Shown here: piece by piece, positions 718 through 44,995 of the stretch
How the letters are laid out: each line of letters opens with the position of its first letter
Numbering within the stretch: position 1 is the first letter of the stretch
Source: Chiloscyllium plagiosum
Taxonomy: Eukaryota
Reading direction: 5' to 3'
NCBI RefSeq assembly: GCF_004010195.1
Contig: NC_057749.1
Span: 10,587,271 to 10,648,850 of the forward strand
DNA length: 61,580 nucleotides
Made by a program: the position numbers and the translations under genes
Notes under the pieces: model-generated
Databases searched by the model: none
What the model saw: the letters and a program-made list of their open reading frames with translations, nothing else
Told to the model about the DNA's origin: nothing

Positions 718-918
718 ATGATATGGAGGTGCCGGTGTTGGACTGGGGTGGACAAAGTCAGAAATCACCTGATGCCAGGTTCTAGTCCAACAGGTTTATT
801 TGAAATCACAAGCTTTCGGAACACTGCTCCTTCATCGGGTGAAGGCTGACCCTCTGTGTTCATCTGACGAAGGAGCAGCGCTCCGAAAGCTTGTGATTTC
901 AAATAAAACTTGCTGGAC
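718..918. mobile_element. Fold-back PLE-derived mini-element, family A, with a hammerhead motif in each arm
   Basis: Arms ~785-843 and 859-918 are reverse complements around a 15-nt spacer. Plus-strand core CTGACGA-aggagc-agc-gctcc-GAAA-GCTT at 864-892; the left side is longer. Confidence 0.8.
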
Positions 919-9519: not shown

Positions 9520-9630
9520 TACACACAAACATTATCACAACCACCTGATGAAGGAGCAGCGCTCCGAAAGCTAGTGCTTCCAATTAAACCTGTTGGACTA
9601 TAACCTGGTGTTGAGTGGTTTTTAACTTTG
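9520..9630 (+). ncRNA. Single PLE 3' arm (family A) with an intact hammerhead core
   Basis: CTGATGA-aggagc-agc-gctcc-GAAA-GCTA at 9545-9573. Confidence 0.7.
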
Positions 9631-32090: not shown

Positions 32091-32630
32091 ATATGCCAGT
32101 GATAGCATCAATCCTCAGTGTACAATGCAAGGCTTCCTGCAAAGCATACAGTAGATGGGGACCATTCAATGGGACTTGCATATAAAACCTTGCTTTGGAC
32201 AGATGCCAAAATTCAACAAGAAAATGACACGTAGATTAATTATGAATAGGAAATGGGTTTCTCAGGGAGAACCTAATTCAGAACCAGTACCAGAGCAGCC
32301 AGTTCTGGAGATGAACTGAACGGTTCCAAACGGTAAAACCAACAGCATGTACAAGAAGGAATTATTTGAATTCTGAACATCAGAACTTTCAGTCACTTTG
32401 GAAATTTTTCACATGTCACTGAAATTCCATGTCCCTCAAACCCGCATGGACATCCTATTTTACTTTGAATTTGCACCATTGGTCTATCTAAGTGCTTAAG
32501 CTCCACATGAATTTCTTTCGGCTATTTTATTGAATTCACTCACTTACCAGCATATCCTTTGACACCTTCCCTCCTCTTGCTTGTTTAGCTTCCTCTTAAA
32601 CATACCTTTGCCATTTATCATAATGTGCGT

Positions 32631-32849
32631 GTGCTGGTGTTGGACTGGGATGAACAAAGTCAGAAGTCACACAACACCGGGTTACAGTCGAACAGGTTTA
32701 TTTGAAATCACAAGCTTTCAGAACGCCGCTCCTTTGTCAGGTGAAACCTGACCCTTCATCTTCACCTGACGTAGGAGCAGCGCTCTGAAAGCTTGTGATT
32801 TCAAATAAACTTGTTGGATTGTAACGTGACGCCATGTGACTTCTGACTA
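32631..32849. mobile_element. Fold-back PLE-derived mini-element, family A
   Basis: Arms ~32657-32745 and 32761-32849 are inverted around a 15-nt spacer. Both hammerhead cores are mutated (CTGACAA, CTGACGT). Colinear with 718-918. Confidence 0.8.
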
Positions 32850-33175
32850 TTTACCCTAATTCTTCATAAAAGTACAGCTCCCATCAGGGATGTCTTTGGC
32901 AATGTCCCCTCTAAGCTTGGTGCAATTCTTTCCTGATTGGAGGCCTGTGCAGCAGGGAAAATGAATTTGAGGACAAGTTGATATTGGGTAGATTCACAAC
33001 CGCCCATCTTTCTTATGGATCTCATGTTGGGAAAGATGTCTTATCTCACAACTTTGACCAAAGATACGGTTAAGCTTAACAAAGAGCAACACATGACTTG
33101 ATAGTTTATTATATTACATTAGAAATACATGATGTTCCCTTGTAAAACACAGTAGACTATAATGTCATTGGACAT

Positions 33176-36595: not shown

Positions 36596-37939
36596 CTAAT
36601 ACAATAATGTTCTTTTTTGAAATAAGGATACCAAAACTAAAGACAATATTCTGGATGTAGCCTCAGCAACACCCTGTACAAAAAACATCTCTTTTTATTT
36701 TCCATTCCTCTTGCAATAAACAACAACAAATGGGTTTGGGGAGTCCAAAAGAACTCTCCTTCTGTGCATTGAGGTGACGATTGAAGGATGGAGAACATTT
36801 TCTTCTGGTTTCCAATGTTAGCATCAAACTTTTACATATTAGGAACAGAACTGACCAAATATTCCATTCTACCTAAAACCTCCCTCAACCTCACAGCAAC
36901 CATTTCTGCAGTTTCACTGTCATTACCAATACCCACAATAGCCGCCCTGTGCTCTTTCTTAGCAAAATGTTAGAGCTATAGGAATTTTCTGCTGTGGATG
37001 TTTTGTAGTTACCTTAGCACAGTTATTTAAAATCACCTCATGTATCTATTGTACCACTGGGAGAAAAGAAGAAGGAATTTGTACGTAAAGAGCACCTTTA
37101 CAGTCCATAAGGCACAGTCATTCTGAAGTACGGGCCTGTCAAACTTGAAACATTTCTCTCTCCACAGATGCTGCCGGGCCTGCTGAGTTTCTCCAACATT
37201 TTCTGCATTTACATACTGTTCTTGTTGCAGCACAGAGACAAATCCAGATAAGGATTCCCACGCAAAGTCCCTCAAATGTCAGTGAGACAAATGACCTGAT
37301 ATTCTGATATAATGATATTAGCTAAGGGTTAAAGGTTACATCCGAAACGTTGACTTCTCCGCCTCCTGATGCTGCCTGGCTTGCTGTGTTCTTCCAGCCT
37401 CCTGCTTGTCTTCCTTGGATTCCAGCATCTGCAGGTATTTTTTGTTGTCTCTAAGGGTTAAATATTGGCCAGAAGACTGAGAACTTTTCTTTGAAAGACT
37501 GCAAGCAGCACCATGATGTCACACCTGAAAGAAGAGTGTTCTGACAGTGTAGCCTCCCTCATTACAACACTTGAAGAGTTATGACAGCTCTCAGCTCAAG
37601 GCTCGGGGACTTGAACCAACAACCTTCAGCATCAGAAAATAGTGCTACCCACTGAGCCACAGCTATCACAATGAAGTCCAATTCAAGGAACATTGCTCTC
37701 TCTTGTTGCAGCATTTTACAGTTCAGGGGGTCAGAGGTCAATTTTCAGGTAGTGACATTTGGATGAATGATGTCTGGGTGGCCAATATTTCTGCTCACAT
37801 TATCCTAGACTTCAATAGCAGTCGCAGCAACAAGTTGTACATATCACTGACAATCTGCTGCTTCAAGAAGGTCAAATTCGAGTGAAAGACAATTAGAATT
37901 GCAACAAAAGGTTGCAAGTCTCTCCTCTAACAGATGAGA

Positions 37940-38130
37940 GACTTAACAAACAATCAACGTATTTTTCAATGTATAATTTCAATTACATCACACTGTAAAC
38001 TTTTGCTATAAATTCTGTGTCTTACAATCGTGTACTCCACAGCCACCTGATGAAGGAGCAGCGCTCCGAAAGCTAATGCTTCCAATTAAACGTGTTGGAC
38101 TATAACCTGGTGTTGTGTGATTTTTAACTT
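37940..38130 (+). ncRNA. PLE 3' end (family A) with an intact hammerhead core
   Basis: CTGATGA-aggagc-agc-gctcc-GAAA-GCTA at 38047-38075, with the same downstream sequence as the 9545 copy. Confidence 0.7.
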
Positions 38131-41408: not shown

Positions 41409-42057
41409 ATTGTCCATTCCTAATTGCCCAGAGGGTAGTTAAAAGTCAACCACATTGCTGTAGTTCTGAAGTCACATGCAAGCCAGGCCAAGTAAGGACA
41501 GTAGATTTCCTTCTCTAAAAGATATCAGTGAACCATGTTTTACAAAAGCAAGTGTTTAAATAAACGTCACAGATAATAGGTTAGCTTTTCATTGCAGATC
41601 TTTATTGTATTCAAATTCTACCCTCTGCCATGATGGGATTCAAATCCATGTCCCAAACACATTGCCGAAGTTTCTAGATTGTTAATCTAGTGGCATTATC
41701 ACTAACACTGCTACCTCCTCCCTGGATCACAGTGTTCTGTCCTGTTAATGACACCACTATTTAACAGTCCAGAGACAGTCTCTACATTTCCTTTGTGGAG
41801 CCTTGCGGATGGCAAGTAAAGGTTGGAGAACTGGGGACATAGCGTTATTGCCTTGGCTTTGACAGCTCTTCTCTGTTGGCATTTCAGGACACCAGAGTAA
41901 CTCCTTACATCCTGTAGACTACGGGAGAGAGTCCATTGAGCAAGATCGAGAGAAAACAAGACAGATCTTGAGTCAGCAGGACAATCCAGTATTGGCATGT
42001 TATTTGAAGAAACCTACCCAAACATCACTGAACAGATTGAGAAACATTAATCCAACT

Positions 42058-42262
42058 GTTAAAAATCACACAACACCAGGTTGCAGTCCAACAGGTTTAT
42101 TCGGAAGCTCTAGCTTTTGGAGCACTGCTCCTTCATCAGGTATTCATTAGGAGCAGTGCTCCGAAAGCTAGTGCTTCCAATTAAACGTGTTGGACTATAA
42201 CCTGGTGTTGTGTGATTTTTAACTTTGTTCAAACCAGTCCCACACCAGCATCTCCAAATCAT
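42058..42262. mobile_element. Fold-back PLE-derived mini-element, family A variant
   Basis: gttaaaaatcacacaacaccagg...ccttcatcagg is inverted against ggagcagtgctccgaaagctag...gatttttaac, with an unpaired ~38-nt tail on the right. Confidence 0.8.
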
Positions 42263-44995
42263 AATCCAATGGTATATGGCTGGCTGAGAAATTAGGGGAC
42301 AAAAATTGTTCACTGTCAGGATGAGAAAATTGTCAAAATGTTACTCACAGTTAGGGGTAAAGTTACAATTAGTAGTTAGTGTGTTATGGTTGTGCTAGGG
42401 TTAATGAATTGAGTTAGGAATGTAGGCCATTCAGCCCCTCGAGCTTGCTCTGAGACAAAATACATCAGATAAAAATACAATGGACTAGCCCAAAAGGAGA
42501 TCTTTGCAAAAACTCAATTAGACATCTCATTTTGATGCAATGCCAGAGAGTTAGTTTATTGTCAACAGCCCAGTGCTGTCAACATTAATGTTGCTCCCAA
42601 CAATGATTTGGTTATAATGCAAATACACTAAACATAAAACTGATTTAAATACATATTCTTCTGTTGCTGTTTTTTTAAAAATTGCATCCCAAAATCTTTA
42701 CTGATATCAAATCAGCATTTACTCCAGACAGCTGAAGATTTAAGATGAGTTTGCCAGGGTAATGATGATAAGGTTGTGACTAGGGAATGAGGAAGGAAGA
42801 TTGGCTTGGCTGATTTCCCAGTGATTAGGCAACACAATCACCGCAGTATTGTCAATTGTGGTATCTAGTGCTAATCATTAATTTAAACTGACTACCCCTT
42901 AACCAAAACTCAAACTATAACGACCAACCTTTAACCTTAACATTAACATGTTAATCCCCAATCACAAATATCAGTCCTTAGCTTTAGCCCTGACCTAAAC
43001 TACAACAACCTAGCCAGAACCTAAAGTGATATGAGGGCGGTGTAGGAGATGGCATTGAAGGAGACAATCAATAATGATTTAGAATGGCAGAGCAGGCCTG
43101 AAAGGGTTGAATGGCCTATATTTCCAACTCTCAGCTCTATTCCTTAACCCTAATAGACTGACCTTAACCACTAATTATGAATTGTAACTTCAACCCTAAA
43201 TGTGAGTAGCAGTCAGACCATTTTCTGACATAGAAATACTGAACAAGCACTCAGAAAACCAGCACTAATAGCTCAGCCAATGATACTCAGCAGGATTCAT
43301 TTCTCACACCCCATTGTATGATTTTTGGGTAAATTTCCTCACAGCAACACATTGGCTGAACCAGAAGATGTGGTCATTCTCTGGAGAAGAGTGGTTTAAA
43401 ATTGTCACTCAACTCACAGTCAGAAGGCTGGGCCCAACCTTATCCTTAATATTTCCCTTTAAAATCAAGATCTGTCTCATGATTTAGCAAATGCATTAAA
43501 CGTAACATTGGCAGATGACTTGACTCTATGTGGGAATCATTGAAGTAATTCTTCCTAGAGGTCCTGGGTTTAAAGATGTCATTGAAATTCAGGACCACAG
43601 ATGATGCACAGTTGTTGTCACAGAGACAAAAGATTGGGGTATCGAAGGTGGCAGAGGGCATTAAGTGCCACGACGAAAGACATTATCACTGGAGGCTAGA
43701 TTCTCCTGTCAGTGCAGCATATGTTGCTCCAATCTGTTTGCCCGTGAGAGGTTGAAGTCAGAAGCCGATATTTAACCCTCTATGTCAATCAGGTACAATG
43801 AAGCATTGCTGGGAAACTGAGGGCTGACTGGTGACCATCGGAGTGTGTAAACATGACTAAAGAGCATGACTGTGGCACTGCCCACTGGACCGTTAAACAA
43901 ATTGGTTCAGCCAGGATTTACTCACACGCAGCTCTACCAGATCAAGTGAACCATACTCGGGGTGAGAGATATCTGTGAGTGGGCAAGAGAAAAAGCAAGA
44001 TGGCTGTTCCACTTTAAGGTGAAGTTTAGCTCCCTGCAATCACACTAAAAGCACACACTCAAAGAATTTTGAATGCCTAATCCATGGATTATTTTTTCTT
44101 TATTTCAATTGTGGGCATTCATGTTGCCATTGGTGGAAACCAGCCTTATAGAAAGACTGAGGTTAAAAAATGTTAGAAATAACTCATTAACCAGCAGTCT
44201 CACAAATACTGAGACTACCCTGAATCTCCATGTTTGTGCACATATGTGTACATGTGTGCCTGTTTGTGGTTCTTCCTAGGTATGTGTGTGCACATGCAAG
44301 GCTGAATGCATACATGTGTGAGTGTGTATTTGTTTGTGTGTGCACATGTGTTAATGCCTTCAGGATTTTTTTCTGAATGTCCCATTAGGTTTATTAGCAC
44401 TATTTCAGATTTACAGCCACAGAATGAAGATCAGCAAATAAATATCGAACCATTTATAGGAATGAGAGGGCTGAACCAATGGACAAACCATGTACGAGAG
44501 CGTGGATGTATACAATTGAGGGTGTATATTTAAAAAGGACATGTGCATGCGTACGTGTATCTGCATGTGTATGCCTATACTTTTTACTGCCATCTTCTCC
44601 TGTCTTCCCTGCCTACAAGCAATCATTTCACTGAGATACACAGATCCCCAGCATCAGTGGACTTCCTCATGTGAGAGATTGATAAATTAATATTGCCCAG
44701 GGAGTTAACTGGGGAGGGCATCACAGCTGAGTCTCACTGGAGTGCAGTATTGTGGGAGTGCTTTATTGTGAGAGATGTGATATCAGAGGTAGCCAACTTA
44801 TTTATTTCAGTGATATTATTGGACGTTAAAGATCACATGAGCAATGAAGGCCAAAGAGTTCTCCTGGTGTCCTAGCCAATATTCATCCCTCAAACACAAC
44901 ACAAATTCCCCCTCATTCATTCACTAATGTCTATGGGATAATGCAGAGTGCTATGAATTGTTGCGATGGCCTATATAATAACAATCAACAGACCT

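Follow-up and report, generated by a model that had tools for sequence, protein, structure and literature searches.

Two hammerhead-bearing palindromes in shark DNA are probably old insertions of a PLE terminal unit

The window analyzed here, a stretch of 61,580 nucleotides of Chiloscyllium plagiosum DNA, holds two palindromes, W1 (718-918) and W2 (32620-32848), which are head-to-head inverted pairs of a hammerhead-bearing unit of about 125 nt common to both. The balance of the evidence favors their being old insertions of the terminal unit of a shark Penelope-like element (PLE), with the palindrome made anew each time. The palindromes are real and are expected scars of PLE integration, of a known kind; W1 and W2 themselves are now inert, decayed relics. 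The unit would comprise a leader of about 15 nt, then a minimal type-I hammerhead, then a stem-loop with a choice of 3' terminus, either T1 or T2, the latter being T1 plus 38-39 nt. It is found also as single arms and joined to a longer body, and wherever both outer ends are readable in pairs of the W1/W2 type, one arm is T2 and the other T1. We infer from the enzyme of PAc (Poseidon of Anolis carolinensis, PMC11167929) that the two nicked target strands would each prime a cDNA on the unit RNA, and that the two cDNAs would converge and be joined near the RNA 5' end. Joining at that point would mean that the palindrome forms anew at each insertion and is not inherited. The constant fold point would correspond to a preferred cDNA end immediately 5' of hammerhead helix I, and the 15-nt spacer would result when one arm halts at this preferred end and the other reaches the end of the leader. 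This proposal leaves out one observation, the presence of the rare-leader junction of W1 and W2 at four places, all on the chromosome of the window (C40); fresh formation of each palindrome does not predict this clustering.

The long arm of W1 (718-843; 126 nt) has its sense strand on the minus strand of the window and served as the reference arm for alignments. It includes a 39-nt tail (718-756, minus strand) and a minimal hammerhead layout at about 805-843 (minus strand) with C at core position 4. The 15-nt spacer (844-858, plus strand) reads as the leader 5' of the plus-strand hammerhead in the short arm (859-918). That hammerhead layout, at 859-896, has every conserved core position present, and the short arm ends early, at reference column 68, where it adjoins another repeat at 920-1132. 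In W2, the long arm (32620-32745, minus strand) has its tail at 32620-32657 and, at about 32707-32745, a hammerhead layout whose core position 8 is A. The spacer (32746-32760, plus strand; 15 nt) is the leader of the short arm (32761-32848, plus strand), which stops at the tail-less terminus and carries a hammerhead layout at 32761-32798 with U at core position 9. The repeat search placed the inverted arms of W1 at 792-843 and 859-910 (52 nt, 88% complementary), the right arm being carried out to 918 by BLAST, and those of W2 at 32658-32745 and 32761-32848 (88 nt, 84%). The inter-arm gap is exactly 15 nt in both, and the two spacers have ctgaccct in common. The RNA fold of the W2 strand, a single long hairpin, has an energy of -127.9 kcal/mol, compared to -55.7 +/- 4.2 for shuffles (z = -17). 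The two arms of W2 differ by 16%. In both palindromes the left arm is longer than the right by an extra 38-39 nt, which start ATGAT or ATAAT and precede the palindromic part. Thus the preliminary description was correct in seeing head-to-head pairs of one PLE 3' arm around 15-nt spacers with ctgaccct at both loci, and its extent for W2 (32631-32849) needs revision, as the long arm starts at 32620 with an extension of 38-39 nt that the right arm lacks. The surroundings of W1 are repeat-rich. Other interspersed repeats lie at 920-1132 and 1127-1216, against the shortened short arm, and one repeat beside W1 is SINE-like (ggtctggagtcac...) and is present near W2 as well. The window contains 969 N.

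On the strand that carries it, each arm reads in the order of a short leader, UCAC or UCAU (helix I), CUGAYGA, one extra A, GGAGC-AGC-GCUCC (helix II), GAAA, GC, UU, GUGA (helix I), a stretch containing AAUAAA, and then a stem-loop. This layout, which had been assigned to each arm, is present in all four, and the core is intact in one only, the right arm of W1; each of the remaining arms has one core change (U4 to C in the left arm of W1, G8 to A in the left arm of W2 and A9 to U in the right arm of W2). The claim of a ribozyme core on each strand accordingly fails for W2 and for one W1 arm. Judged by sequence reading against the feature list in PMC4209133, the right arm of W1 is complete for the minimal-hammerhead layout. 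The features compared were the CUGANGA ... GAAA ... UH core, the extra nucleotide 9/10.1, the G10.1-C11.1 pair, the palindromic 15.2-16.2 and helix I. The match to the metazoan PLE minimal hammerhead, as set out in that source (Cervera and de la Pena 2014, PMC4209133), extends to CUGAYGA with an extra nucleotide before helix II, the G10.1-C11.1 pair, a 5-bp helix II, GAAA, a 4-bp helix I, and a palindromic AGCU in place of helix III (the dimer type). We see no notable difference in layout; published minimal hammerheads are described as cleaving poorly in vitro (PMC4209133). Minimum-free-energy folds of the right arm of W2 and of the long arm of W1 contain helix I plus helix II, and the stability of the single-arm folds was no greater than that of shuffles (z from -0.78 to 0.60). 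Rfam gave 0 matches in the window at the gathering score, and at E<=10 the 6 and 8 matches of W1 and W2 included no hammerhead; as no Rfam hammerhead model matches, the assignment rests on motif and not on model. The microRNA precursors mir-2012, MIR845_1 and mir-1597 were rejected as candidates, as their matches scored 26.1 vs 90, 49.6 vs 81 and 43.6 vs 93 bits and are generic long-hairpin matches far under the gathering thresholds. For annotation, such pairs are best not called microRNA hairpins, MITEs or active twin ribozymes.

The family was traced through the genome (3.56 Gb searched). The 219-nt W2 palindrome as query returned 4790 candidates, of which 40 were scored; every one of these 40 has matches on the two strands, at 75-86%. 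When 27 of those copies were aligned with W1, W2 and a third pair in the window (W3, below), the flanks were unrelated and the centers very different, whereas the start of the long arm and the end of the short arm were constant. The junction pattern TCAGGTGAA-N(0-30)-TTCACCTGA occurs at no fewer than 153 places genome-wide (control, 1). Among the first 50 junctions listed, in a sample picked for intact inner 9-mers and hence not a random draw from the family, spacer lengths span 1-29 nt, most often 3-5, and spacer sequences vary; a 15-nt spacer is present in 4 of these 50. An internal 24-mer has 3792 exact matches (control, 0). Of twenty arms picked by this 24-mer only, 11 are in fold-backs, whose inner breakpoints differ widely, 7 are single and 2 continue into an upstream body; 6 of the 7 single arms end exactly at the fold boundary of W1 and W2. 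The fold-backs L133, L137, L140, L146 and L150 lack the middle of one arm or of both, by post-insertion deletion or by inner breakpoints that were different from the start. Two fold-backs 543 bp apart with identical match scores (L003/L004; C23:14929688-14930438) point to local tandem duplication of a whole pair, and a tandem array at C34:34357487-34359862, with CTGACCCTTGCCC(C/T)TTCACCTGA repeated every 27-222 nt, may be a satellite derived from the first part of a hammerhead unit.

We took a census of tails in 40 of the first 50 listed TCAGGTGAA-N(0-30)-TTCACCTGA copies. One tailed and one tail-less arm are found in 32 of these 40 junction-selected copies: the tailed arm extends to reference columns 1-10, and its partner ends further in, mostly at columns 27-44, with a few that stop short because of truncation or an alignment break. 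The remaining 8 comprise 7 with alignments broken by indels or truncation and 1 without family arms, and neither two tails nor the lack of any tail was seen among the 40. The tail length is 38-39 nt. Many of the junction-selected copies, L095, L097, L102, L106, L114, L115, L117, L119 and L123 among them, are flanked beyond both arms by target duplications of about 8-15 bp, with lengths varying from 7 to 15 bp overall. Their position outside both arms makes each palindrome a single insertion event, as the preliminary description had it. W2 has a possible, weak target duplication of 9 nt (7 of 9 alike; 32611-32619 and 32847-32855). For W1, the downstream search for a target duplication or for the missing arm end scored no better than shuffles.

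This organization is that of a PLE insertion unit, with an inverted, 5'-truncated neighbor within one target duplication of variable length and a tail of 30-40 bp usually at one end. A tailed arm paired with a tail-less one has been published as the hallmark of PLE insertions (PMC11167929, PMC8557442, PMC3846280). PMC3846280 describes PLE insertions as inverted pseudo-LTRs in one target duplication, with a tail on one of them and palindromes at the junction, the head-to-head form being the commonest. Compared to the canonical endonuclease-positive PLEs, as described by Arkhipova et al. 2013 (PMC3846280) and Craig et al. 2021 (PMC8557442), the shark copies are alike in the head-to-head arrangement within one target duplication, the tail at one end (30-40 bp in PLEs), the palindromes or overlap at the inverted junction, the heavy 5' truncation and the hammerhead in a repeated terminal region. 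They differ from those elements in that most shark copies consist of a terminal unit of about 90-140 nt per side with no ORF between, and in that their inner ends fall close together, in a stretch of about 15 nt immediately upstream of the hammerhead. With purified PLE protein of Anolis, both DNA strands are cut and extended, reverse transcription begins from a pair of neighboring internal sites of an AC-rich stem-loop, with the PLE tail as the sequence between these sites, and insertion proceeds without need of hammerhead cleavage (Frangieh et al. 2024, PMC11167929). The shark family resembles PAc in the two adjacent starts in an AC-rich stem-loop downstream of the hammerhead, in the tail as the stretch between the starts, and in the cutting and extension of both DNA strands; the T/A-rich letters flanking W2 are also in line with the AT-rich targets of PAc. 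In PAc there is no strand difference in start site, whereas the shark pairs almost always combine the distal and the proximal start, and the PAc hammerhead overlaps the ORF start, whereas the shark frame from that ATG closes after 9 codons (PMC11167929). The near-obligatory pairing of a tailed with a tail-less arm constrains models of how PLE enzymes use their start sites on both DNA strands.

A sister subfamily (the GAAAGCTAGTGC type) is young, at 94-96% identity, and repeats this pattern of ends. Its sense strand ends either tail-less (T1) or about 39 nt further (T2) in 29 aligned copies. The singles comprise 9 T1 and 11 T2, and the 10 inverted pairs comprise 9 T1+T2, 1 T1+T1 and 0 T2+T2, with clear target duplications; the inner point of truncation differs widely between the two members of a pair. 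The window has a third head-to-head pair, W3 (42057-42262, plus strand), of this subfamily, in which the left arm is tail-less and the right one tailed. Its junction has removed part of both hammerhead cores, and it is flanked by an exact TAATCCAA duplication (42048-42055 and 42262-42269). The window also holds a single 5'-truncated copy of the subfamily at 37926-38130 (plus strand) and a single short copy at 9542-9630 (plus strand), both ending at the tail-less terminus.

The sister subfamily also provides the tie to a PLE protein. One of its copies, L036, has decayed ORF fragments about 450 nt upstream of the hammerhead, among them a reverse transcriptase (RT) with YIDD and C-terminal fragments reading ...RMNGH...GLNRDLGFMSH. 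The RT fragment matches uncharacterized shark proteins that carry RVT_1, with up to 89% identity. These homologues have a C-terminal VVYLIRC...WYIG(K/E)T, which to the eye is GIY-YIG-like, and our assignment of it to a GIY-YIG endonuclease is putative. Pfam scans of the five L036 ORF fragments were empty, those of four full-length homologues gave only RVT_1 and no GIY-YIG match, and a PDB sequence search returned nothing significant. The putative linkage to an ORF of PLE-type RT with a GIY-YIG-like motif, the latter recognized by eye, was thus seen for the sister subfamily only. For the W1/W2 subfamily, the upstream body seen spans about 300 nt (L136 and L144) and no ORF-linked copy came to light; its ORF link is drawn from the sister. 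The earlier proposal of a fold-back element mobilized in trans survives in part: the arms are ORF-less PLE tail units that must be mobilized in trans, and the fold-back as the replicating unit is not supported.

The spacers trace to the leader of the unit. We count 224 places with the pattern CCCTC-N(2-6)-TTCACCTGAYGAAGG (control, 0); most read CCCTCCAC or CCCTCTCAC immediately before TTCACC. The same leader stretch precedes the hammerhead in the long-bodied copies L136 and L144. It is also present in the letters before 32760 in most family contigs, from three species labels, and the 3' part of the W2 spacer, cccttca, is what precedes the hammerhead in most family copies. Several other spacers of 13-15 nt (L123, L098, L086 and L011) are this leader too. 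The spacer of W1 and W2 is therefore largely native leader from upstream of the hammerhead, and its length of 15 nt means that one arm halts immediately before helix I and its partner goes some 15 nt further. As to why cDNAs should end at the boundary 5' of helix I, our guesses are the start of transcription or a block by the folded hammerhead.

A comparison of the two arms within copies bears on how they were made. No fixed difference between long and short arms was found in 73 shared columns (lowest uncorrected p, 0.013). Arms of the same copy share 2.12 derived states, compared to 1.40 between copies (reached by 0 of 5000 shuffles), and their identity is 0.800 vs 0.780 for arms of different copies (reached by 2 of 5000 shuffles). 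In non-CpG columns the minority state is present in both arms 33 times, vs 16.8 expected. Such sharing within a copy is what one predicts if a single template made both arms at insertion; gene conversion within the palindrome could be an alternative source of it. The lack of fixed arm differences, together with the private variants that arms of the same copy share, would speak against a long-lived fold-back master. Twin priming of L1 offers a parallel, in that both nicked strands prime cDNA and give an inverted 5' part, as proposed here for W1 and W2. L1 twin priming joins different segments of one RNA, whereas the W1 and W2 arms copy the same segment, and hence two templates or two passes are needed.

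We return to the junction that W1 and W2 share. Their spacer is a variant of the leader, in which CTRACC replaces the commoner GCTTCC and one base is added. The strict junction pattern without mismatch is found genome-wide only in W1, W2 and a copy at C40:10.18 Mb. The 20 junction matches with one mismatch (control, 14) include none with family arms adjoining, and were rejected as chance. A looser leader pattern has 22 matches (control, 5), about half of them in unrelated tandem arrays, and GGTGA lies within 30 nt upstream only in W1, W2 and the 10.18-Mb copy. The same 15-nt junction recurs in one more copy, the fourth, at C40:13.196 Mb, which has its own target duplication. The loosest pattern has 7 places (control, 0), which are these four plus one each on C3, C4 and C20, whose spacers are 13-14 nt with different second halves. 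The exact W1/W2 junction type is therefore present at four places (10.18, 10.588, 10.620 and 13.196 Mb), all on C40, a chromosome of 27 Mb or 0.76% of the genome. Setting aside W1 and W2, which were ascertained together, 2 of 5 pattern matches are on C40, for which chance would be about 6e-4 by our arithmetic. With these two further copies, the suggestion that the junction of W1 and W2 is shared beyond chance is borne out. Across the family as a whole, relatedness within chromosomes showed no excess (1.94 vs 1.97 shared states; 2791 of 5000 shuffles reach the observed value), which counts against simple copying as a unit. We put forward, as a tentative reading only, that the four C40 copies reflect chromosome-local propagation, either of a re-copied fold-back or of one C40 source RNA that reinserted nearby. 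If this is true, the RNAs that PLE enzymes mobilize in trans would not disperse at random; a junction variant confined to one chromosome hints at local reinsertion of short PLE-dependent RNAs. The C40 group has three candidate readings: serial local copying of a fold-back, repeated local insertion from one C40 source with a recurrent junction class, and gene conversion.

The most serious alternative to fresh formation, although we consider it rather unlikely, holds that a ready-made fold-back (tail-less arm, 15-nt spacer and tailed arm) was transcribed and re-copied by the PLE machinery into the four C40 copies, with a bias to the home chromosome. It would account for the same 15-nt spacer variant and breakpoints in W1, W2 and the copies at C40:10.18 Mb and C40:13.196 Mb and nowhere else, amid flanks that are all different and with an own target duplication in 3 of the 4 copies, and 5' truncation of a fold-back template would fit the shortened outer arm of W1. 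The arms themselves do not show the expected kinship. Among W1, W2 and the 10.18-Mb copy, pairs of long arms have 1, 1 and 2 derived states in common vs a mean of 1.34, and pairs of short arms 0, 0 and 0 vs 1.40. A rare variant occupies column 66 in both arms of W2 (3 of 60 sample arms), a further one occupies column 88 in both arms of the 10.18-Mb copy (2 of 63), and each is private among W1, W2 and the 10.18-Mb copy, the three copies in this comparison; this is as expected if each copy was made from its own template. Furthermore, junctions of the '0 / -15' class are also found beside different variants of the leader (L123, L086 and L098), and a perfect RNA hairpin of 90 bp would be a poor template and would block the hammerhead fold. 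Genome-wide, re-copying fails in the face of varied junctions and the lack of fixed arm differences. The preliminary description had held that the palindrome was copied as a unit, and two findings count against this: copies across the genome have heterogeneous breakpoints and spacers, and the spacer is largely native upstream sequence. Copying as a unit is refuted for the family and is a minority reading for the four-copy C40 group.

Short-tract ectopic gene conversion, by which the centers of four independent C40 insertions would later have been made alike, strikes us as improbable. It has the merit of reconciling the private two-arm variants far from the center with an identical center, it is by nature a within-chromosome process, and it makes local transposition unnecessary. 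Against this, the copies are 32 kb to 3 Mb apart with homology of only about 90 bp per side, and the arms adjoining the spacer are no more alike than background in the three copies compared. The four spacers differ from each other at several of their 15 positions, as much as the arms or more, and therefore give no sign of late homogenization.

We dismiss as very improbable a segmental duplication of W1 and W2 or a MITE-type DNA transposon with long terminal inverted repeats: the two palindromes do lie within 32 kb in the same orientation and have long inverted termini, but W1, W2 and the 10.18-Mb copy have no collinear flank homology (so that W1 and W2 do not share flanks, in keeping with the original account), the flanks match only in other interspersed repeats in a different order, the 38-39-nt tail on one side only and the target duplications of 7-15 bp eliminate a MITE or fold-back DNA transposon as a candidate, and the outer ends are two natural 3' termini of single retro-copies.

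The non-LTR retrozymes (Li, Clavereau and Pollet 2026, preprint, 10.64898/2026.07.22.740005) were considered as well. According to that source, they are non-autonomous, hammerhead-bearing derivatives of the PLE terminal region, as W1 and W2 are, and occur in vertebrates, cartilaginous fish included. The same source describes them as direct tandem repeats thought to give circular RNAs, whereas W1 and W2 are inverted and have no direct repeat. The two 401-nt regions around W1 and W2 each gave 0 direct-repeat families, the units there being inverted, and in the absence of direct tandem hammerhead monomers this class was rejected. Our literature search found no paper on fold-back PLE units in sharks, which is weak evidence of absence.

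Returning to W2 as an insertion of the PLE terminal unit, we find its outer junctions, from left flank to long arm and from short arm to right flank, in contigs of two other species labels, with a flank divergence of about 4-7%. The contigs break inside W2, and the comparison is thus one of its outer ends and not of the spacer. Presence of the flank junctions in these two related species places the insertion of W2 before their split. Among the sequencing runs listed as containing the W2 stretch there was no RNA run. In the one RNA run searched, reads fell on the repeat only, with none on the W2 flanks and none at least 99% alike; these reads derive from other copies of the family and are uninformative on transcription of W2. 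Polyadenylate-selected reads of other copies (less than 95% alike) enter A/T tracts about 15-17 nt past the AAUAAA of the arm, within 32796-32826 and, in the mirror arm, 32672-32702, with loose ends at 32818, 32682 and 32686. Polyadenylation sites may thus be supplied by copies of the unit; alternatively, some relative may have an A-rich tail.
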